Part shown: positions 83 to 10,152 of the stretch, piece after piece | How positions within the stretch are numbered: the first letter of the stretch is position 1 | Layout of the letters: each line of letters begins with the position of its first letter | Source: a virus | Lineage: Duplodnaviria; Heunggongvirae; Uroviricota; Caudoviricetes | Length of the DNA stretch: 36,611 bases | Reading direction: 5' to 3' (one strand) | Virus record (IMG/VR): IMGVR_UViG_2537561930_000005 | Notes under the pieces: generated by a model | The model's database searches: none | Seen by the model: the letters and a program-made list of their open reading frames with translations, nothing else | Told to the model about the DNA's origin: nothing | Translations under genes and position numbers: made by a program

Positions 83-1984
83 ATGAGCAAAGTAAAAATC
101 GGTGAATTAATAAACTCACTTGTTAGCGATGTTGAGTCAATAGATAACTCTGACCGTCCTCAAGGGGAGAAAACAAAAAAAATAAAGGCTGTTGCATTAA
201 AATTTAAAAATGCATTATTTAATGACAAGCGAAAGTTTAGGGGGAAAGGATTAGAAAAAAGAATTACAGCCAACACATTCAATGCCTATATGAGCAGGGC
301 CAGAAAACGGTTTGATGATAAACTTCATCATAGCTTTGAAAAAAATATACATCGCCTATCTGAAAAGTATCCTTTATATAATGAGGAGCTATTGTCATGG
401 CTTTCTCTACCTGCTGCCGATATTCGCCAGAGAATGTCAGCTTTACAGGCAAAATTAAAATTAATTCTCCCTCTATCAGAAGATTTATCTAATATCAGAA
501 TTGGCGATAACAAAAGTCATAATAAGTTATTGAAATTATCAAATAAATATAAAGAGTGGCAATTCGCCATTTCTGATTTAACTAGCGATAACTGGAAAGA
601 TAAGCGCGATTATTTATATAAATTACTACAGCAAGGATCTGCCTTACTTGAGGAGTTGAATCAGCTAAAAGTTAACCATGAGATTCTCTATCATCTTCAA
701 CTAAGCCCTGCCGAACGTGCATCTATCCAGCAACGATGGGCGGACGTTCTGCACAATAAGAAACGTAACGTGGTGGTCATTGATTACCCTAAATATATGC
801 AAGCTATTTACGATATTATAAATAGCCCTGCTACATTAAATAATCTAAACACTCGTTCAGGTATGGCTCCTTTGGCATTTGCACTTGCTGCATTGTCAGG
901 AAGACGAATGATTGAGATTATGTATCAAGGTACATTTACTGTTTCTGGTAAGTATACCGTTGATTTTTTAGGCCAAGCTAAAAAAAGAACTTCTGATGAT
1001 ATAACCAGAAAAATATATACATTATGCGAAGCAAAAACATTTGTTTATTTAATAAATGTACTTCGCTCATGCCCAGCAGCATCTGATTTTGATGATGTCG
1101 TTAAAGGTTATGGAGATAACGACACACGCTCTGAAAACGGACGTATTAATGCCATATTAGCAAAGGCTTTTAACCCGTGGGTTAAATCATTTTTCAAAGA
1201 TGACCGCCGTGTTTATAAAGATAGTCGTGCTATTTATGCCCGTATTGCGTATGAAATGTTTTTCCGCGTAGATCCTCGTTGGAAAAACGTAGATGAAGAT
1301 GTTTTCTTTATGGAAATTTTAGGCCATGACGATGAAAACACTCAATTACACTATAAGCAATTCAAGCTGGCCAACTTCTCAAAGACATGGAGGCCAAATA
1401 CTGGAAACGAAAATACCAGGCTGGAAGCATTGCAGCAGCTTGATGACGAAATGCCTGGATTCGCCAGAGGAGATGCCGGGGTTCGTCTGCATAACACAGT
1501 TAAGCAGCTGGTAGAGCAGGACCCCTCTATAAAAATCACGAACAGCACTCTAAGAGCGTTCAAATTTAGCCCAACAATGATTAGTCGATACCTGGAATTT
1601 GCTGCTGATGCTCTGGGGCAATTTGTTGGCGAAAACGGACAATGGCAACTGAAAATAGATACTCCAGAAATCGTTATGCCTGACGAAGAAGAACTGGAAG
1701 CAATACCTGAACTGGCGGATGAATTGTCAGAGGATGACGATCTGGATGACGACGAAATTGAGATAGAGGAAGAGGAAGAGGAAGAGGAAGAGAGCGTAGA
1801 AGAACAGCAACCGCCTGCACCTTCTTCGCCTGTATCTAAGCCGGTATTTAAGCCGGTGAGAAATATTGGTGATGGCTCATACGTTGTTGAGTTTCATTAT
1901 AATGGCCAGAATTATGCGTGGTCCGGCAGTGCAAACAGCCCCATGTCAGCAATGCAGTTAGCATGGCTGACATATTTCGGTTAA
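83..1984 (+). CDS. telN: Protelomerase (telomere resolvase), TelN/TelK-like, 633 aa
   Basis: ATG at 83 preceded by RBS AGGAGAGG (71-78). The protein has the N-terminal MSKVKIGELIN... and tyrosine-recombinase-like core I recall for N15 TelN / phiKO2 TelK, plus a C-terminal acidic tract. Length is close to the ~630 aa of TelN. Confidence 0.8.
   Translation: MSKVKIGELINSLVSDVESIDNSDRPQGEKTKKIKAVALKFKNALFNDKRKFRGKGLEKRITANTFNAYMSRARKRFDDKLHHSFEKNIHRLSEKYPLYNEELLSWLSLPAADIRQRMSALQAKLKLILPLSEDLSNIRIGDNKSHNKLLKLSNKYKEWQFAISDLTSDNWKDKRDYLYKLLQQGSALLEELNQLKVNHEILYHLQLSPAERASIQQRWADVLHNKKRNVVVIDYPKYMQAIYDIINSPATLNNLNTRSGMAPLAFALAALSGRRMIEIMYQGTFTVSGKYTVDFLGQAKKRTSDDITRKIYTLCEAKTFVYLINVLRSCPAASDFDDVVKGYGDNDTRSENGRINAILAKAFNPWVKSFFKDDRRVYKDSRAIYARIAYEMFFRVDPRWKNVDEDVFFMEILGHDDENTQLHYKQFKLANFSKTWRPNTGNENTRLEALQQLDDEMPGFARGDAGVRLHNTVKQLVEQDPSIKITNSTLRAFKFSPTMISRYLEFAADALGQFVGENGQWQLKIDTPEIVMPDEEELEAIPELADELSEDDDLDDDEIEIEEEEEEEEESVEEQQPPAPSSPVSKPVFKPVRNIGDGSYVVEFHYNGQNYAWSGSANSPMSAMQLAWLTYFG
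1766..1794 (+). repeat. (GAGGAA)n hexamer tract inside telN encoding a poly-Glu linker
   Basis: Direct read: gaggaagaggaagaggaagaggaagag, in frame, encoding EEEEEEEEE. Confidence 0.9.
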
Positions 1985-2155: not shown

Positions 2156-2341
2156 CTATTTATTGGTGATTTCTGCTGGCTTTAGCTGCGCGGATAACTG
2201 CTCAAGTTTTTGAACTGCCAGTTCAAAATGCGCGGGTAAAGCATTGCAAATATCATTCGCCACAAACCACGGATCGCCGTTAATCATCACTACACGTACC
2301 TGATGCTCTTCCTGAAAGGAAAAGACTGCTAACGCGCTCAT
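2156..2341 (-). CDS. Small protein with Bro-N-like N-terminal motif (61 aa)
   Basis: Motif VRVVMINGDPWFVANDICNAL resembles the Bro-N/antirepressor N-terminal domain. Start overlaps the upstream gene stop (ATGA). Confidence 0.4.
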   Translation of the reverse strand: MSALAVFSFQEEHQVRVVMINGDPWFVANDICNALPAHFELAVQKLEQLSAQLKPAEITNK

Positions 2342-2571
2342 TCAGCCTCCTTACCGTGCAGCAATTGCGACGAGAGCGATGCTGAATATCCCTGTGCTTC
2401 GTGTGTTAACTCACACGCAATTTGAAGGAGTTTCCCTGCTTCTGAGAGATAAATCGACGCCTCACAGCTGGAGACTGTCCGATGGGCTGATGATACGAGC
2501 GCATAGACCTGAGCCAGACGTTCATCCAACGATTCCAGCAGGCCAACAGTGTTCATTTTTACCTGATTCAT
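2338..2571 (-). CDS. Hypothetical protein (77 aa)
   Basis: ORF translationally coupled at both ends (ATGA overlaps) within a three-gene minus-strand operon. Confidence 0.4.
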   Translation of the reverse strand: MNQVKMNTVGLLESLDERLAQVYALVSSAHRTVSSCEASIYLSEAGKLLQIACELTHEAQGYSASLSSQLLHGKEAE

Positions 2572-2732
2572 GCAGCCACCTCGCGCACCGGAATACGGGC
2601 AGACAATACCAGGACAAACCGGCTGGCGAACTGGCGACGAGCTTCCCGTTCAGATGACGCGATGGTGGAAAGATGATGGATGTGTGACTTTTTGTCTGTG
2701 CGAACGACTGCCGCAAATTTGAATTTGAACAT
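2568..2732 (-). CDS. Hypothetical small protein (54 aa, MFKFKFAAVVRTDKK...)
   Basis: Hand-translated ATG-initiated ORF not in the supplied track (<60 aa). Its TGA overlaps the ATG of the next gene. Confidence 0.3.
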   Translation of the reverse strand: MFKFKFAAVVRTDKKSHIHHLSTIASSEREARRQFASRFVLVLSARIPVREVAA

Positions 2733-3110
2733 GGTATGCACTCCGTTTAATTGGTCGTGCTACCACCAGAGTTCTCACGCTCTTGAATGGTGGTAGCCCA
2801 AGCGGGGGTGAGAATACCGGCAAACGAAGAAACCGGCCTGACCGAAGTCAGCCCCGCCTGAGCCACCATAAATCGGATATGCGCAGGTATATACACACAA
2901 AAAAACACGCTGGCGCGTGTTGTGCGCTTCGTTTATCCGGGTTCTCACGCCCGGCTGCGGAATTTGCCGCAGCGGAGTAACTTTACCGTCAAAACGACGC
3001 ACACGTCAATAATTTGCAAAGACATTTTACCCCGTGACCAGTCACGGGGACAGGTGTTTTTATAGTTTGCTTGAACGAGTGATCAGAAGTTGATCGTTAA
3101 TCAAAGGCCA

Positions 3111-3398
3111 TTACGGATTAAGAGAGTGGAAATACCTAACTAACTTACCGGCATCATCACATTTTTCTTTATCTTCTTCCTTAACATAGCCGCGACAGAA
3201 GGCTGAATAAAATTTCGCATTTTCAGAAGCAAAAGCAGCCGTCGAAAGGAGCAGTTCTTTGCATGATTCTTTTGATGCAGCATCGGGATTATTTTTACAT
3301 GCAAGCTCCGCTGATGAGTTAATAACAGAAATGCTATCTTCCTGGGCATAAACCGCAGCAGAAAAGGCAAAACATAAAACCAAAATAAAACTCTTCAC
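3111..3398 (-). CDS. Small secreted protein with four Cys (signal peptide MKSFILVLCFAFSAAVYA|QE)
   Basis: GTG start at 3398 with RBS AGGAG 5 nt upstream. Typical Sec signal peptide with AxA cleavage site; four cysteines in the mature part; low GC. Confidence 0.45.
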   Translation of the reverse strand: MKSFILVLCFAFSAAVYAQEDSISVINSSAELACKNNPDAASKESCKELLLSTAAFASENAKFYSAFCRGYVKEEDKEKCDDAGKLVRYFHSLNP

Positions 3399-3425
3399 TT
3401 TATCTCCTGTAACAGTTATCACAAC

Positions 3426-3821
3426 TCAATCAACTTTTTTAGCATCAGCCATACGCTTCAACCAGTAATCAACAATCGGCTGCTCATCCACAGAATGTTT
3501 ACCAGGTATAACTCGCCAGCTATCTTGCGAAAATCTGCCGTACTTACGCGGGAATAGGCCTTTCTTTATCTCCCGCCATGTACTAGGAAAACCATCCACA
3601 AAAGTACCAATTAACAGGAGAGGGACAAAAATCAGAGCTACAAACCATCGTGCAAGAAAGTGTTCAACAACAACATTTTCACCGTTGTAGTAATACGCAT
3701 ACGCATCCAATATGCGAATTTTCCTTACCTTAAAAATAGCCTTATGCTGAGAACGACTTAACTTGATACGAATGTATCCCTTATCCAAAGGGGATTCGTA
3801 TTTGTATGATTGAACAGCCAT
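3426..3821 (-). CDS. Membrane protein with one predicted TM helix (WFVALIFVPLLLIGTFV), 131 aa
   Basis: ATG at 3821 (MAVQSYKY...). Lies 27 nt upstream of the secreted-protein gene on the same strand; low GC. Confidence 0.45.
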   Translation of the reverse strand: MAVQSYKYESPLDKGYIRIKLSRSQHKAIFKVRKIRILDAYAYYYNGENVVVEHFLARWFVALIFVPLLLIGTFVDGFPSTWREIKKGLFPRKYGRFSQDSWRVIPGKHSVDEQPIVDYWLKRMADAKKVD

Positions 3822-3918
3822 TTTTAACCCCACTCACCATCAGCAAACAAAGCGTTATACTCTGACATTGACATCCTCCCCCACCTTCGCACTTCGTGAC
3901 TCAGGAGGGGGATTCCCA

Positions 3919-5151
3919 TTAGTGGGTGACGGCTGATTGCTCAGCGTCTGGTTCCTGCTTCAACGGGCGGTCTGACTGCACCGTCCCTCCACAGGCAAGT
4001 ACGGCGTGCCCCGCCGCTAAAATGTTGCGAGCGCCGTTTACATCGGCGTTCGCTGTATATCCACAAGCCCGACACACGAATTTACTTTGTGTCAGGCGGT
4101 TTTCTTTCGCTGTATGACCACAGCACGCGCAACGCTGGCTTGTGTACGCTGGCGGAACAGCAAGCACCTGACCACCACGCCAGAGCTGCTTATACTCAAG
4201 CTGGCGGCGCATTTCATACCAGCCCTGATCCAGTATCGAACGGTTTAAACCTGATTTTGCCCGAACATTGCGCCCCGGTTGGCTGACCGTACCCGCTGCT
4301 GACTTTGACATGTTGCTGACCTTCAAATCCTCAATGACTATCATTGCGTGGTTTTTGCTGATGATCGTTGTGACTTTATGAAGGTAGTCTCTGCGGATAT
4401 TTGCGATACGGGAATGCAGACACTGTATTTTGCGTTTCTGCTTCTGCCAGTTGTTGCTGAATTTGACCCTGCGGCTTAACTGTCGCTGAAGTCTCGCCAG
4501 CTTCTTCTGGTTTTTCTGAAAACTGTTTACAGGTTCAAAGACTGTGCCATCTGACAGCGTGGCGAGTTTAGCCACGCCAGCATCCAGACCGACTATCGTT
4601 GTGCTTGTGTGATTTGGTTCTGCCGTTTCAACTTCAACCTGAAACGAGATATACCACTGTCCCGCTAACTGACTGATTGTCGCATTTTTGATTTTACCGT
4701 TCACACGTTGAGATTGCCGGAATTTTACCCACCCAAGACCTGACGGTAGCTTCACTCTGCGATTTTCAAGGCAGCAATATTTCTCAAAGTTCACAAAACG
4801 GATTGAGTCTCTTCCCTCATTTTTTCGTTTCCATACCGGAGCCTTAGCTGCGAGCTTTTTATCAAAACAACGTTTCCATGCGGTATGCAGGTCTTTCAGC
4901 TTTTGTTGCAGATTGTCGGTATAAGCATGCTGTAAGAAGATGTATTCCGGCATTTTTTTCCACACTGTAATCATCCGGTTCAACTCGAAAGCCGAAGGTA
5001 ACTTTTCGCCTGAGCCAAGTATGCGCTTTGTCTCCGCAAGACCTAAATTCCAGACAAAACGGGCGCAACCACATAACTGCCGCAAACGCTGCGACTGTTC
5101 ATGCGTTGGTTCCAGTCTGAATTTGTAGGCTTTCAGGATTAGCATCATCAT
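3919..5151 (-). CDS. tnpB: TnpB (OrfB) RNA-guided nuclease, 410 aa
   Basis: C-terminal zinc-finger CxxC...CxxC (CACCGH...CRACGY) and RuvC-like region typical of IS605 OrfB; adjacent to tnpA. Confidence 0.8.
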
Positions 5152-5203
5152 TCAGTGTGTAGTAGATTTTCTTGCAATATTACTGTTTTTACGGCCAACC
5201 TCA

Positions 5204-5608
5204 ATGCAAAAATACAAAATCAATCGTTCAAGACATGCTGCCTTCCTTTTGCATGTTCATCTTGTCTTTGTAACAAAATACCGTCGAAAGATACTGGGAG
5301 AGTTACACTGTGCAGCATTCCATCAGTATGCAGCAGAAGTCTGCCGTGATTTTGGGGCAGAACTTAAAGAAAGTAACGGAGACGTCGATCATGTCCACAT
5401 GCTGATCGAATACCCACCAACAGTGCAGCTTTCGGTACTGGTTAACTCACTGAAAGCAGTGACATCCCGCCGTCTGCGAAACGAATTTCTTGATTTGCGG
5501 GGGGCATACGGAAAAGCCGTGCTCTGGTCGAGGTCATACTTTGCTGGCTCCTGCGGAGGTGCGCCGCTGGAAGTTGTGAAGCAATATATTCAACATCAGC
5601 GAGGCTGA
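5204..5608 (+). CDS. tnpA: IS200-type Y1 (HUH) transposase TnpA, 134 aa
   Basis: HUH motif (HVHMLIEYPP) and conserved IS200 TnpA length and architecture. Confidence 0.85.
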   Translation: MQKYKINRSRHAAFLLHVHLVFVTKYRRKILGELHCAAFHQYAAEVCRDFGAELKESNGDVDHVHMLIEYPPTVQLSVLVNSLKAVTSRRLRNEFLDLRGAYGKAVLWSRSYFAGSCGGAPLEVVKQYIQHQRG

Positions 5609-5680
5609 GCACCCTTCGGGCTTTTCAAGCCCGTCCAAATTCCCCTCCCGCCTTATGTCGGCGGGAGTACCCTTTGGAAG

Positions 5681-5968
5681 TTAAGATGGTAGACGGTTGC
5701 CCTCGATGTAGAGATTCAGTTCATACTTCGTCTCCGGGTTTTCCTTGTCGGCTCGTTCCCAACGCTCAGCAGCCTCACGCGCCAATAATTCCACTGCTTT
5801 CAGATAATCCTCCGTACGGAACCAGCCAAAGATAAGGCCACGATCTGTTACAGCCCAGGCAACCTTTTTTTCTTCCTCCTGGATAGCCTTAATGCGTCGA
5901 TCGCATTCATCCCGGCAAAACTGCAGCTGACGGTAATCAAGTTTGTCCAAAAATGCAGTAGTAGACAT
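5681..5968 (-). CDS. Hypothetical protein (95 aa) downstream of repA
   Basis: ORF on the repA strand; no recognised domain. Confidence 0.35.
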   Translation of the reverse strand: MSTTAFLDKLDYRQLQFCRDECDRRIKAIQEEEKKVAWAVTDRGLIFGWFRTEDYLKAVELLAREAAERWERADKENPETKYELNLYIEGNRLPS

Positions 5969-5972
5969 ATTT

Positions 5973-6164
5973 TTACTCCCCGTTCACCGAAAAATCACGA
6001 TAGAAACGTTTCCACATACGATAAGTCTGCGCGAGTTGTTCACCACGAAACATCGCCTTCCTGGCCTTCATGTTTTCCTTGTGAGACTTTCGATCTATGA
6101 ACCAAAACCATTGCTGGAACACACAAAGCAAGAGACACAAAGATAATATCCACTGATTACCCAT
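5973..6164 (-). CDS. Small membrane protein (63 aa, MGNQWILSLCLLLCVFQQWFWFI...)
   Basis: ATG at 6164 lies 2 nt upstream of the repA TAA stop (ATGGGTAA), suggesting translational coupling. One clear hydrophobic helix. Confidence 0.3.
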   Translation of the reverse strand: MGNQWILSLCLLLCVFQQWFWFIDRKSHKENMKARKAMFRGEQLAQTYRMWKRFYRDFSVNGE

Positions 6165-9100
6165 AGAAAGCGCCCTGCTCTTCGTAGCTGCATGGGCTAT
6201 TCCCGGTAATGTATTCACGTAACCGCCGCAGTTCATTGCTGGATAAGTGATCCATGAACTCTGTGAGGTACAGAGATGCAAACGTCATAGCTATGCTGGC
6301 TGATGACCATGATGACATAGTGGCCAGCTCCTCACCGGAAAGCGCACTCATCGCCCAGGACTCAGGTACAACCACTGGCAACACAGCCAAAGCCTCAGAA
6401 ATTACTGAATGAGGGGCGTTTTGAACCTGCTCGTTTGTGGATCGCGTTTTATCATCCATATATATATTGAGATCCAAATCGCGATCCATTTCGATGGCGG
6501 TCTTCTCGGCTTTACGCGTTTTCAGGGTTAGGCCATCTTTCTGACGCTGAGCAAGAATATCCAGCATAAATGCCGCTGATTCAGGCTCAACAAAACGCAA
6601 GGTTGGACGCTTATCGCCGTCTCTGCCGCGACGTTTACCTGTTTTAAGGCCAAGAGAGTCGCAAATGTTTTTAAACAACGCTTCCGGCACTTTAGGCTTC
6701 CCTTTTGGCGTCATAAAACCACCAATGTGCAGAACGTTATTCAACAGGTCACGGCGTTCGGCTGTCATGAGGTTATCTCGAGCAAATTTGAGACGCTCCT
6801 GAGTCGCCTCGCCGGTCATAGTCTCAGGGTTGATACCGCAGTCGATAAAGTACTGCCGGAGAGTTGCTGATTTAAGCGCATAGAAACCGCGCGCCCCGAC
6901 TTCAACAGTAGGAGTAGCTTTTACCTTGTGATCGATTATTCCAGGGAATTTAGTTTTAAAGACATCATCAGCCTGCTCGCGAGTCATCGCGGTCACTACA
7001 AAATATTGCCACTGTCCCGCCTGACGGTATGCGTAGGTAAAATTGATGGCTGCTTCTTCCCGGTCGTAACGACGAGCTGTTACCTCATCTAAAAGCATTG
7101 TTTCATAGCGGCGAACTTTGTCTCGAGCACCATCGAAATAGAATTTCAGCGTGCCTTCTTCAACCGGTAGTTTCAGTTCGTTTTCAATATCCCAGCGGAC
7201 AAGTTTTGCCTGTTCTTCAAGCGTCAGCGCGCGTTTTTTTAGCAGTTCTTCACGCTCTGATTCTTGTGGAGTTTCTGTATTGAGATGCAGATCCAGTGTC
7301 TGTTCCCACACAATATCCCGCGCTTCTTTACGCAGCTCTTTACCGATATCATTCGCAGCATAATCGGTGGCCAGCGGCGATACCTTATAACCGTCGCTGT
7401 GCATGATGCAGATCATGTTGCTGGCGTAGTCGTTACGCGCAGTCGCTTCAATAGCGGCTGCTTTAATTTTCATCCTGGTAAAGTCGGTATTGGCCACCCC
7501 CATTGATATACGGTCGCCATCGAAAACGACATCCGTCAGTTCACCGTTCATACCTGCGGTAGCAAGCAATGCCTGGGCGAATGCTCGTTCTATTTTTTGC
7601 GGGTCAGTTTCACGTTTTGCACGAGCTTTATCAAAGCCGATAATAAATTCTTTTGCTGTACGGTCGCGGCGTAGCATTTGCACTGCGTCGCTGGGTACAA
7701 CTTCACCACAGAACATGCCGAAATGACGGTCAAAATGTTTTTGCTCAATCGACACGCCGGATGAAATAGACGGGCTATAAATCAGGCCGTCGTATTTTTT
7801 GACCATCTTTTTCGGTTGATTGGTAAATGCTTCAACTTCTGGCTCTGGTTTGTTTTTCTGGTTTACACACAGAAATTTCTTACCAGGAAAATGCATTCTC
7901 AGGGTGGCTGTCACATCTTCTGCAAAGGTGGAGCTGTCGGTGGCCAACATGATTTTTTCGCCATCCGATACAGCTTTCACCACCTCGGTCATGATGCGAT
8001 CTTTTTCTGTATAAAAAACCCGGATTGGCTCACCTGTTTCGCGGTTGCGAACATCAACAGGTAATTCAATTACGTGGATCTGCAGCCATGCCGGTAAACC
8101 TAGTTCTTCACGGCGTTTCATAGCCAGTTCAGCCAGGTCAACCAGCAGATCATTCGCATCAGCATCCACCATGATTGGGTGTTGTTCTGTTCTGGCCAGC
8201 GCGTCAATTAGCGTATTGAATACAGCCACCGGGTTTTCCATAGCCCGACCGGAAAGAACGGCACGTAGCCCTTGTGTGGCCTCGTCAAAGCCAAAATAGT
8301 CGTGCTGGCGCATCAACGGTTGCCAGCAGTTTTTAACAATCGAGTTTATGCAGATGGTCAGTTTACTGGCGTATGGAGCCATTTCCTGATAGCCAGGATC
8401 CTGATAGTGCAGGATATCGGCTTTTACACCTTTTCCTTCTGTCATCATTTCCCACAGGCCGCCAATAAGGGAGACACGGTGAGCAACAGAGATACCACGT
8501 TCTGAGCTATGCATTAACGGTCGTAACAATCCAGTAGATTTGCCGGAACCCATACCAGCACGGACGATGACTATCCCCTGTAGTGATTGCACGTACTTCA
8601 GGACATCATCGGTCATTACCGAAGTTTCAAAACGCTTATAGGTGATATGTTGAGGGCGTTTATTGGGATCAGTTATGCGTTCGCTGAAAGAGCGCGGAGC
8701 CTGGGCAATACGGCACTTTTTATTCAGGCGACGGGCAATGTGGTCTTTTACCGTAGCGCGATAGATATTTTCCAGTCCCATTTCACGCAGAACGATGCAG
8801 AACATGTTAAATAAATCTGACGGACTGTTAGGAACCGGACAGGTTAGCATGCCAATATCCACCGCTCTCAGCAGCTCTTTGGCAAAAGTACGACGGTTAT
8901 CCCGCTTAATTGTCTTCAGGCGGTTGAGCGTCAGAGATAGCAAATCAGTACCAGTTTTCAGGCGGTTTGCTGTTGCAAATAGTTGACGTGCTGTTTCACG
9001 AAGTCCACGTAGTTTGTGCAGGTCGTTGAAGTCACTGCACTCCATTTGCGGATCGTCTTCAAAAGTTGGATAGACGCAGCGGACATCGTTGAATTTCGAT

Positions 9101-10152
9101 AAGATTTCATAGCCAGTCCGCAGGCCGGTATTCCCTTTTCCTTCTGTGGCAGATTTCCGGTCATTATCCAGTGCGCAGGTGATTTTTGCCGCCGGGTACA
9201 TGTTTACCAGTTGTTCCACAACATGAACCATGTTGTTAGCGGATACAGCGACAACCACAGCGTCAAAGCGTTTATCTTTTTTCGTGGCAAGCCAGATGGA
9301 TGCACCAGTAGCAAAACCTTCTGTAACAGCGATGTTTTGCGCCCCTTTCAGCTCACCGATAACAAAGCAGGCACCGACGAAATCGCCGCTGGTTACTGCG
9401 CTGGTCTGGTATTTTCCACCTTGTTTGTCGATTCGCTGCCAACCCACAATACGACCATCGTAACGACCGTCCAGGTGAGCCAGAGGGATAGCCATATACG
9501 TGGTTGGCCCCCTGCTCCATTTTGCGCTGTCGTGACTGGTCACGCGACGCACATCACACGAATTAAAAACGTCACGAATACCTTTTTTAATCGCATATGG
9601 CCATGAGCCGTCTTCTGCAGGAGCATGTTCCCACGCGCTGTGAAATGCCAGCCATCCCAGCAAACGTTCATGGTCAATTTGGTTGTTTTTCAGGTCATTA
9701 ATTCGTTTTTGTTCTTCACGGCGACGACGTGCTTCGGCCTGACGTTCTATTCTTGCCCGTTCTTCTTCCGGTTGTGCGACCACGGTCGCATTATTCCGTT
9801 GTTGCTCACGGCGATATTCAGAAAACAGGAAGGAGAAACCGCTCCATGAGCCAGCATCGCTGCCTTTATGGACGAAGTTAATGAACGGGTAATCAATCCC
9901 TTTGCTGTGTTCCAGCCGGGAGTAAATTTCTACGCGTCCTTTGAGGCTCTTCTCGAGAGCTTCTGGAGATGTTTTATTGTATGAAGAGTAACGCTCAACA
10001 CCCCCGCGAGGGTTGAGTTGGATGTTGTCGGAACAGGCAGGCCAGTTGATACCAGCCATCTGTGCCAGCTCGGTTAGTTCATCCCGTGCTGCTTCAATTA
10101 GCGAGAACGGATCGCTGCCAAAGCGATCCGCATAGAAATCGTTTAATGTCAT
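6157..10152 (-). CDS. repA: Replication protein RepA, primase-helicase fusion, 1331 aa
   Basis: Giant ORF with Walker A (GMGSGKST) helicase region and N-terminal primase-like region. Size and position (divergent from telN, adjacent to cB) match N15 repA, which I recall is ~1324 aa. Confidence 0.8.
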   Translation of the reverse strand: MTLNDFYADRFGSDPFSLIEAARDELTELAQMAGINWPACSDNIQLNPRGGVERYSSYNKTSPEALEKSLKGRVEIYSRLEHSKGIDYPFINFVHKGSDAGSWSGFSFLFSEYRREQQRNNATVVAQPEEERARIERQAEARRRREEQKRINDLKNNQIDHERLLGWLAFHSAWEHAPAEDGSWPYAIKKGIRDVFNSCDVRRVTSHDSAKWSRGPTTYMAIPLAHLDGRYDGRIVGWQRIDKQGGKYQTSAVTSGDFVGACFVIGELKGAQNIAVTEGFATGASIWLATKKDKRFDAVVVAVSANNMVHVVEQLVNMYPAAKITCALDNDRKSATEGKGNTGLRTGYEILSKFNDVRCVYPTFEDDPQMECSDFNDLHKLRGLRETARQLFATANRLKTGTDLLSLTLNRLKTIKRDNRRTFAKELLRAVDIGMLTCPVPNSPSDLFNMFCIVLREMGLENIYRATVKDHIARRLNKKCRIAQAPRSFSERITDPNKRPQHITYKRFETSVMTDDVLKYVQSLQGIVIVRAGMGSGKSTGLLRPLMHSSERGISVAHRVSLIGGLWEMMTEGKGVKADILHYQDPGYQEMAPYASKLTICINSIVKNCWQPLMRQHDYFGFDEATQGLRAVLSGRAMENPVAVFNTLIDALARTEQHPIMVDADANDLLVDLAELAMKRREELGLPAWLQIHVIELPVDVRNRETGEPIRVFYTEKDRIMTEVVKAVSDGEKIMLATDSSTFAEDVTATLRMHFPGKKFLCVNQKNKPEPEVEAFTNQPKKMVKKYDGLIYSPSISSGVSIEQKHFDRHFGMFCGEVVPSDAVQMLRRDRTAKEFIIGFDKARAKRETDPQKIERAFAQALLATAGMNGELTDVVFDGDRISMGVANTDFTRMKIKAAAIEATARNDYASNMICIMHSDGYKVSPLATDYAANDIGKELRKEARDIVWEQTLDLHLNTETPQESEREELLKKRALTLEEQAKLVRWDIENELKLPVEEGTLKFYFDGARDKVRRYETMLLDEVTARRYDREEAAINFTYAYRQAGQWQYFVVTAMTREQADDVFKTKFPGIIDHKVKATPTVEVGARGFYALKSATLRQYFIDCGINPETMTGEATQERLKFARDNLMTAERRDLLNNVLHIGGFMTPKGKPKVPEALFKNICDSLGLKTGKRRGRDGDKRPTLRFVEPESAAFMLDILAQRQKDGLTLKTRKAEKTAIEMDRDLDLNIYMDDKTRSTNEQVQNAPHSVISEALAVLPVVVPESWAMSALSGEELATMSSWSSASIAMTFASLYLTEFMDHLSSNELRRLREYITGNSPCSYEEQGAFYG
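6436..6490. other. Candidate internal replication origin element within the 3' part of repA
   Basis: Inverted repeat GGATCGCG (6439-6446) / CGCGATCC (6480-6487) flanking an AT-rich spacer containing TATATATAT; three GATC sites within ~50 bp. Confidence 0.3.
9775..9790. other. sopC-like partition (centromere) site copy 1, TGCGACCACGGTCGCA, inside repA
   Basis: 16-bp element with 7-bp inverted arms around AC. Exact 16-mer is repeated at 12218 and 16512. Differs at 2 positions from the F SopB-binding core TGGGACCACGGTCCCA as I recall it. Confidence 0.6.

Follow-up and report, generated by a model that had tools for sequence, protein, structure and literature searches.

What occupies the space between repA and the protelomerase gene telN in an N15-like phage-plasmid of E. 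coli, and do the two small genes found there belong together? The window, i.e., the whole stretch of 36,611 nucleotides (nt) stored as IMG/VR record IMGVR_UViG_2537561930_000005, is an N15-like linear (telomere) phage-plasmid of this species, and among database records it comes closest to E. coli plasmid CP088379.1 (36,595 base pairs, bp) and Escherichia phage PhiR46_1. A first-pass annotation had described the two genes, here called open reading frames (ORFs) A and B, as a low-GC cassette beside an insertion sequence (IS). Their coordinates, strands and 27-nt spacing were confirmed from the sequence:

3426..3821, minus strand: ORF A
3111..3398, minus strand: ORF B

Judged by gene order, the region can be described as a hypervariable accessory locus of the phage-plasmid, flanked by the gene string repA-gp36-gp35 on one side and by the immC antirepressor locus on the other. 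ORF A then appears as a conserved gene bordering a variable slot, and ORF B as the occupant of the slot itself.

The Variable Slot of Telomere Phages

Klebsiella telomere phages carry a hypervariable cassette of a bacteriocin ("telocin") and its immunity protein between repA and the protelomerase gene (Byers et al. 2025, PMC12042878). In lysogens of one of them, NAR688, TelA and ImmA were among only nine phage proteins detected by proteomics (PMC12042878). The genes for these proteins (TelA with a Colicin pore domain, ImmA with Colicin_im) lie precisely in the interval from the gp35-like gene to the icd-gp31-Bro locus of NAR688, and no homologue of ORF A or ORF B was found there or elsewhere in that phage. 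The K. pneumoniae plasmid NZ_LR890708.1 has the order repA, small ORF, gp35-like gene, ORF A-like gene (36% identity of the product), muramidase gene, Pim-like gene, icd, gp31, Bro and telN. The muramidase is pesticin-like (PF16754, E = 4.5e-45), and its neighbour is a secreted Pim-like protein (PF16765). In uninterrupted relatives of the window, the leftward order is repA, a small ORF, the gp35-like gene, ORF A and ORF B, all tightly packed on one strand. By synteny with NAR688 and NZ_LR890708.1, the locus corresponds to the position of the telocin cassettes, and the two gene orders indicate that ORF A borders the slot and ORF B fills it. The immC locus is the conserved downstream border of the slot.

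The slot is occupied differently in other elements. Other genes take the place of ORF B in YDC107_1, pEA8_3, N15, NAR688 and two further elements (L028 and L033), and the occupants include a 270-amino acid (aa) lipoprotein (pEA8_3), small genes (YDC107_1, L028) and gp33/gp34 (N15). The lipoprotein, encoded in E. albertii plasmid pEA8_3 (L005, 3112-3924) in the place of ORF B, begins with MRNKKTTALLLSILLLSGC..., has an LLSGC lipobox and no Pfam domain. It was found in the ORF B slot of about 7-8 plasmids and is a second uncharacterised envelope protein at this locus.

A toxin gene was not found in the slot of the window: no ORF longer than 135 aa lies between gp35 and immC except the IS genes, and Pfam detected neither a toxin domain nor a match to the telocin immunity families Colicin_im and Pim in ORF A or ORF B. 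Compared with the telocin:immunity cassettes (TelA/ImmA to TelE/ImmE; PMC12042878), the locus has the same slot, hypervariable content and, by prediction, envelope-acting products, but in lacking a toxin it resembles the "Tel0" state of that paper, supplemented with two small envelope proteins of its own.

This gene order gives rise to the reading that ORF B confers orphan immunity to a bacteriocin acting in the periplasm, such as a telocin of the pesticin, colicin M or colicin Z type made by competing telomere phages; it would either have been kept at the telocin:immunity locus after loss of the toxin or have been acquired without it. The slot does hold toxin and immunity pairs in Klebsiella telomere phages, in one case a secreted Pim-like protein beside a pesticin-like muramidase; ORF B is predicted to be periplasmic, as such an immunity protein has to be, and the window has no toxin-sized gene at this place. 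The Pim-like homologue of the ImmB of TelB-type phages is likewise a secreted periplasmic protein from the same slot of a related phage-plasmid, but it consists of 141 aa, is not helical-looking in sequence and is paired with a muramidase toxin. A relationship of ORF B to it was rejected, since hhalign aligned the signal peptides only, with a probability of 4%. Moreover, none of the seven other contexts examined for the ORF B family adjoins a toxin gene, all but one of them being prophage tail clusters. On this evidence, orphan immunity is an unlikely explanation, and it owes its second rank among the possible roles of ORF B to the telocin locus.

Independent Distribution of ORF A and ORF B

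ORF A and ORF B are independent modules, not one inserted unit. ORF A is present without ORF B in YDC107_1, in E. albertii pEA8_3, in Klebsiella, Enterobacter and Yersinia elements and in a metagenomic N15-like contig (L028), where it is followed by a gene for a soluble 110-aa protein. Conversely, a further N15-like element (L016) has a 45%-identical ORF B homologue in this slot and no ORF A. In plasmid pRHBSTW-00124_4 (L023, 1612-2321), ORF B is the same as in the window, but the ORF A allele is only 85% identical and has a different C-terminal end (…KKLIEL); this mosaic of alleles points to recombination between the two genes.

These distributions weaken the idea of a two-component system in which ORF B would be the periplasmic partner of an ORF A acting as anchor or sensor in the membrane. 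In its favour, the two genes are neighbours on the same strand, PhiR46_1 and about 17-19 plasmids have both of them, and the C-terminal tail of ORF A (about 55 aa) is probably exposed to the periplasm. However, each gene occurs without the other, ORF B-like genes being free of ORF A in L016 and in all prophage tail-cluster contexts, and the recombination seen in pRHBSTW-00124_4 separates them as well. Such a partnership is, in our opinion, quite improbable.

The comparison with related phage-plasmids that the first-pass annotation had proposed thus shows a patchy ORF B and an ORF A conserved after gp35, and its treatment of the two genes as a single cassette has to be abandoned.

ORF B Homologues in Prophage Tail Clusters

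Members of the ORF B family were sought by a HMMER scan of 1.84 billion representatives and by a profile search of 5.8 billion proteins. The former gave 12 matches, several of them frameshifted copies of ORF B itself, and the latter about 20 intact members, all from Enterobacteriaceae or metagenomes. The more distant relatives (30-39% identity) are low-GC inserts in prophage tail-gene clusters. Outside N15-like elements, the relatives are solitary genes in tail clusters of siphovirus prophages, placed at the chaperone/tape-measure, K/I or I/J position, and in four of the five tail-cluster loci their GC content is 0.36-0.41 against 0.48-0.53 in the flanks. A G+C-rich stem with a T-run follows within about 25-90 nt in five of the six chromosomal relatives, and in the sixth (L014) a T6 run is preceded by a weaker hairpin. 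Five of the six have promoter-like sequences, with 7-9 of 12 matches, 42-61 nt upstream.

Gene 15 of phage HK97, a superinfection-exclusion gene in the chaperone/tape-measure position, was the first moron described (PMC3594210), and the definition of Juhala and Hendrix, as summarised in the same paper, is used here. ORF B is present in some collinear relatives and absent from others, and the composition of the cassette (GC 0.39-0.41 against 0.50 for the window) is unlike that of its surroundings; ORF A is less patchy. Being patchy in close relatives and low in GC, with distant relatives in moron slots equipped with terminators, ORF B behaves like a moron, and its family can be regarded as a moron family of predicted periplasmic proteins with four cysteines. 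The earlier proposal of a moron between telN and repA therefore stands for ORF B and falls for a single two-gene insert.

Three ORF B relatives (P0021, P0022, P0028) share with HK97 gene 15 the chaperone/tape-measure position, low GC and a terminator of their own, but gp15 is a YebO-like inner-membrane protein, unlike the soluble periplasmic protein predicted for ORF B. Family searches revealed no link between ORF B and gp15, the two sequences not having been compared directly.

Various cargo genes were observed near ORF B relatives, including those for a HipA-like kinase, an FtsK-gamma protein and an Arc/Arc/Bro/ORF6N antirepressor module. In a Klebsiella prophage (L012, 4112-5624), genes for a HipA_2-like kinase (212 aa) and a 293-aa protein lie beside the ORF B homologue in the chaperone/tape-measure slot and may be defence or toxin-antitoxin cargo. 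In a prophage contig (L030, 2294-4471), an Arc/Arc/Bro-N/ORF6N module resembling P22 immI is located in the tail operon directly upstream of the ORF B homologue, an arrangement reminiscent of N15-like elements, in which ORF B adjoins the immC antirepressor locus. The 137-aa neighbour of the ORF B homologue in L014 was considered as a relative of ORF A and rejected.

Most clusters of ORF B "homologues" (P0003-P0010) are single-member, frameshifted versions of the same gene, whereas the intact form has 95 member sequences. Several frameshifted versions bear LQQ locus tags, and the matching CP088xxx plasmids come from blood isolates. These versions are probably assembly indel errors and not pseudogenes.

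The Insertion Sequence

An IS interrupts the gp35-like gene on the upstream side of ORF A, where the following features were found:

3824..3867, minus strand: orphaned 3' remnant of the gp35-like gene, ending in SEYNALFADGEWG and a stop codon (from translation and comparison with uninterrupted PhiR46_1)
3868..5686, ends good to about 2 nt: IS200/IS605-family element (from Pfam OrfB_IS605 and Y1_Tnp matches and alignment breakpoints)
3919-5151, minus strand: tnpB
5204-5608, plus strand: tnpA
5681..5968, minus strand: gp35-like gene, truncated by the IS

The element sits within the last 14 codons of the gp35-like gene, with its right end about 47 nt from the start of ORF A; its boundaries were obtained by alignment with PhiR46_1 and pEC21Z151-46K, in which the gene is uninterrupted. 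The gp35-like product has 95 aa in the window against 108 aa in the intact form and is 61-64% identical to N15 gp35.

The IS entered the gp35-like gene at a later time and does not belong to the cassette: PhiR46_1, pEC21Z151-46K and more than 10 other plasmids have the identical cassette and an intact gp35-like gene without any IS. The cassette is carried by about 17 PLSDB plasmids and was found in 12 of 5,426 complete E. coli genomes, always on phage-plasmids. The view that ORF A and ORF B were brought in or mobilised by the adjacent IS200/IS605 element, beside which the first-pass annotation had placed them, draws on their closeness to its right end. Against it, both genes lie outside the IS ends, and these ends match hundreds of unrelated plasmids that have no cassette. 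The comparison with empty sites refutes a passenger status of the two genes, and an origin by way of the IS is extremely improbable.

Since the IS separates ORF A and ORF B from the upstream operon, their expression in the window is uncertain; the insertion may have severed them from upstream transcription.

Copies of the IS were also observed in the filamentous phage If1 (U02303.1; 97.5% identity) and in the P1-like phage-plasmids RCS47 and SJ46 (about 94-95% identity).

Properties of the Two Proteins

ORF A, read from 3821 to 3426, has an ATG start and encodes a basic protein of 131 aa (isoelectric point, pI, 9.8), whereas ORF B, read from 3398 to 3111, encodes 95 aa from a GTG start situated five bases past AGGAG. 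Both gave full-length PHROG matches (phrog_15458, E = 9e-92, and phrog_26765, E = 4e-63, respectively), and the same coding sequences are annotated in RefSeq and GenBank. In pairwise comparisons with diverged alleles, the ratio of nonsynonymous to synonymous substitution rates (dN/dS) was about 0.28 for ORF A and 0.13-0.36 for ORF B, the latter resting on only 2-5 substitutions per class. With these matches, dN/dS values below 0.4 and four cysteines invariant at 30-47% identity, the two ORFs are real genes under purifying selection. Scans of both proteins against Pfam, NCBIfam and PADLOC gave no significant match.

The following parts of the two genes are of structural interest:

3594..3653, minus strand: codons of the ORF A transmembrane helix (residues about 57-76), with a hydropathy maximum (Kyte-Doolittle mean) of 2.27
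3345..3398, minus strand: codons 1-18 of ORF B for the signal peptide MKSFILVLCFAFSAAVYA, with the predicted cut before QE, read directly from the sequence

The description of ORF A as a single-pass membrane protein was borne out: it has one hydrophobic segment, which is hydrophobic at the same position in all eight aligned relatives. The family is characterised by a single transmembrane helix directly followed by the motif G-[FVIL]-P-x-T, and its invariant residues are R23, H26, R33, Y43, W59, G77, P79 and T81. Both flanks of the helix are basic, so the positive-inside rule does not settle the orientation. An N-in/C-out topology was assumed because the 58-aa N-terminal part has a net charge of +6 and no signal peptide, and with this topology the C-terminal tail probably faces the periplasm.

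The ATG of ORF A lies 2 nt past the stop codon of the gp35-like gene, a spacing that suggests translational coupling of ORF A to gp35. Homologues with 31-64% identity directly follow a gp35-like gene in telomere phage-plasmids of Citrobacter, Enterobacter, Klebsiella and Yersinia, and the start is 2 nt after the gp35 stop or overlaps it in at least five genera. Relatives of ORF A occur as well in apparently virulent siphophages, namely Proteus Gorganvirus, in which the homologue follows the DNA polymerase gene and overlaps its end, and Salmonella phage CF-SP1, in which it lies between the terminase and portal genes.

According to another reading, ORF A would not serve defence or conversion but would assist the replication and maintenance operon from the membrane, e.g., by tethering or regulating the replication machinery, and ORF B would be an unrelated passenger. 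The junction with gp35 in the repA string and the overlap with the polymerase gene in Gorganvirus are consistent with this. However, N15 and NAR688 replicate normally without ORF A, the position of the CF-SP1 homologue is of another kind, and no DNA-binding or replication-related domain was detected in ORF A, which makes such a role doubtful.

As concerns ORF B, the signal peptide and the four cysteines reported earlier were found again. The N-terminus, MKSFILVLCFAFSAAVYA followed by QE (…AVYA/QE), is that of a typical Sec signal peptide; Ala at position -1 of the cleavage site is kept in 21 of the 23 family members, and the signal peptide contains no lipobox. The mature protein of about 77 aa has a pI of about 5.0 and a net charge of -3, and mature family members are mostly acidic (pI mostly 4.6-5.2). 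From these features, ORF B is predicted to be a soluble secreted protein of the periplasm. In the family alignments, the mature cysteines C34, C46, C67 and C79 are invariant among intact relatives 30-47% identical, and a DK motif is invariant or nearly so; a fifth cysteine, in the signal peptide, is not conserved.

The AlphaFold2 model of mature ORF B, built from a 21-sequence alignment, consists of four helices, at mature residues 4-15, 22-39, 41-53 and 56-75 (predicted local distance difference test, pLDDT, 87; predicted template modelling score, pTM, 0.69). The cysteines, numbered 16, 28, 50 and 62 in the mature protein, are placed in relation to these helices in a way that suggests one disulfide stapling each helical hairpin, so that the modelled protein is probably stapled by two disulfides. 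With the ORF B sequence alone, pLDDT was 55, and the Foldseek comparison of that model with the PDB was meaningless. A profile search of PDB sequences gave no match for ORF B, and weak matches to DUF2385/TIGR02301 (E about 0.07-0.09) were dismissed as chance, being absent in the 22 other family members.

The Spackle Label

A protein identical to ORF B is labelled "Spackle exclusion protein" in the GenBank record of PhiR46_1 (PV340565.1, coding sequence 3086-3373). We found no paper on PhiR46_1 or ECOR13 that explains this label. If it were correct, ORF B would be a homologue of T4 Spackle (Sp, gene 61.3; PMC7677548) inhibiting a gp5-type tail lysozyme. Besides the label itself, a general likeness can be cited in support: both are small, acidic, helical phage proteins of about 75-77 aa in the mature form, exported by Sec to the periplasm and containing cysteines. 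Periplasmic export and a small helical fold with disulfides are indeed predicted for ORF B, but these features are common to many unrelated proteins.

The direct comparisons are unfavourable to homology. BLASTP of ORF B with T4 Sp gave E = 31; the two fall into separate PHROG families (phrog_1586 for Sp, phrog_26765 for ORF B) between which no cross-match was seen; hhalign of the family profile with Sp covered the signal peptide only (probability 15%); and the search of PDB sequences had no match. Pfam scans of all ORF B family members found nothing. Foldseek against BFVD returned nothing below E = 0.6 and no Spackle among the top 50. In addition, Spackle has one disulfide in contrast to the four conserved cysteines of ORF B, and it belongs to T-even phages, while ORF B is found in temperate siphophages and phage-plasmids. 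Neither sequence nor profile nor fold comparison supports the name "Spackle"; the likeness is one of kind only, and homology is very improbable. By analogy, stoichiometric inhibition of a component of an incoming phage in the periplasm would be plausible for ORF B too.

Possible Functions

The roles put forward in the first-pass annotation, superinfection exclusion and lysozyme or toxin immunity, are still the best guesses. In Klebsiella telomere phages, this very slot holds bacteriocin and immunity cassettes. Superinfection exclusion by ORF B is ranked first, as a tentative proposal, since its family lives in moron slots of tail operons. ORF B would be made in the lysogen, exported by Sec and oxidised by the Dsb system, and would act in the periplasm as a stoichiometric binder neutralising an incoming agent that acts in this compartment or crosses it. 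The likeliest target would be the ejection apparatus or the tail muramidase of a superinfecting phage, and ORF B would then work like T4 Spackle or HK97 gp15 while being related to neither. The likelihoods given here to the various explanations are not mutually exclusive, and some of the rivals concern ORF A only.

Several observations weigh against this explanation. No convincing sigma-70 promoter match was found upstream of ORF A in the window, and no canonical terminator after ORF B. Some other occupants of the slot look cytoplasmic, so the slot alone implies no role in the envelope or in defence. Because ORF A has relatives in apparently virulent phages, a purely lysogenic role fits it poorly.

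At the inner membrane, ORF A may act on its own in exclusion or maintenance. Exclusion could be imagined by analogy with T4 Imm, also a small inner-membrane protein of a phage, but the two differ in size and architecture. A relationship of ORF A to T4 Imm was rejected (hhalign probability 0.5%), as was homology to N15 gp33, and a profile search of the PDB gave only polyhedrin matches (E about 0.03), which were regarded as chance.

Pesticin-type telocins and some phage tail lysozymes share the T4-lysozyme fold, and one small protein, placed at the telocin locus or in moron slots of tail operons, could therefore guard lysogens against both rival bacteriocins and superinfecting phages. In this reading, which has a low probability, the ORF B proteins would form a novel group of periplasmic inhibitors with four helices and two disulfides that neutralise muramidases of this fold, and it would amount to a toxin-free strategy of "orphan immunity and exclusion" in E. 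coli telomere phage-plasmids.

Databases already listed both families, with no function assigned, and the variability of the locus had been recognised before. Four results are new: the E. coli cassette maps onto the telocin slot; the ORF B family emerges as one of morons with four cysteines and a predicted place in the periplasm; ORF A is set apart both from ORF B and from the IS; and the Spackle label fails. N15-like telomere phage-plasmids are common in clinical Enterobacteriaceae. Their variable repA-telN locus, recently shown to arm lysogens of Klebsiella with bacteriocins, is used by the E. coli lineage for two uncharacterised envelope proteins. The ORF B family, small, conserved in its cysteines and recurrent as a moron in tail operons of prophages, offers a concrete and cheap target in the search for a new mechanism of periplasmic exclusion or immunity. 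Should there be no protective phenotype, ORF A and ORF B would remain ordinary hypothetical accessory genes of phages. The database label, which may otherwise spread to other records, is corrected.

Layout and Composition of the Element

The remaining features around the slot are as follows:

83-1984, plus strand: telN
2156..2741, minus strand: immC-type secondary-immunity locus (from PHROG and Pfam matches and synteny with N15, NAR688 and others)
2156-2341, minus strand: truncated Bro antirepressor gene of the immC locus
2338-2571, minus strand: gp31-like gene of the immC locus
2568-2741, minus strand: icd-like gene of the immC locus
3030..3049, minus strand: perfect 8-bp hairpin (CCCCGUGA-CUGG-UCACGGGG), 62 nt past the ORF B stop, with no U-tract
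6157..10152, minus strand: repA, which heads the leftward gene string

The 96-nt stretch with the hairpin has a fold z-score of -2.0. The sequence just 3' of it (GGGGTAAAAT...ATTATTGACGTGTGCG) is also found downstream of the 45%-identical ORF B homologue of L016, and a promoter-like TTGACG-18-TAAAGT (2980-3009) was noticed after the palindromic hairpin. The hairpin and the promoter-like site are probably the promoter/operator leader of immC and not a terminator of the cassette.

The low GC content ascribed to the cassette was found as described, 39.7% at 3111-3821 against 50.4% for the whole window, which is the 5th percentile among 711-bp windows. However, telN is equally AT-rich over most of its length (GC 0.32-0.40 up to about position 1350), and low GC is therefore not peculiar to ORF A and ORF B.

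Relatives of the element measure 46-47 kb, about 10 kb more than its own 36,611 bp (similar to CP088379.1), and the list of ORFs stops within the tail genes. The phage-plasmid may therefore be truncated and defective, or else its assembly may be incomplete.

In the immC locus, the Bro-N antirepressor (2156-2341) is cut to 61 aa by an internal deletion, and the ends of the short Bro gene align to both ends of the genes for 259-264 aa in N15, YDC107_1 and NAR688. Since the same short allele is shared with PhiR46_1 and several plasmids, the lineage of the window may be one without a working antirepressor.

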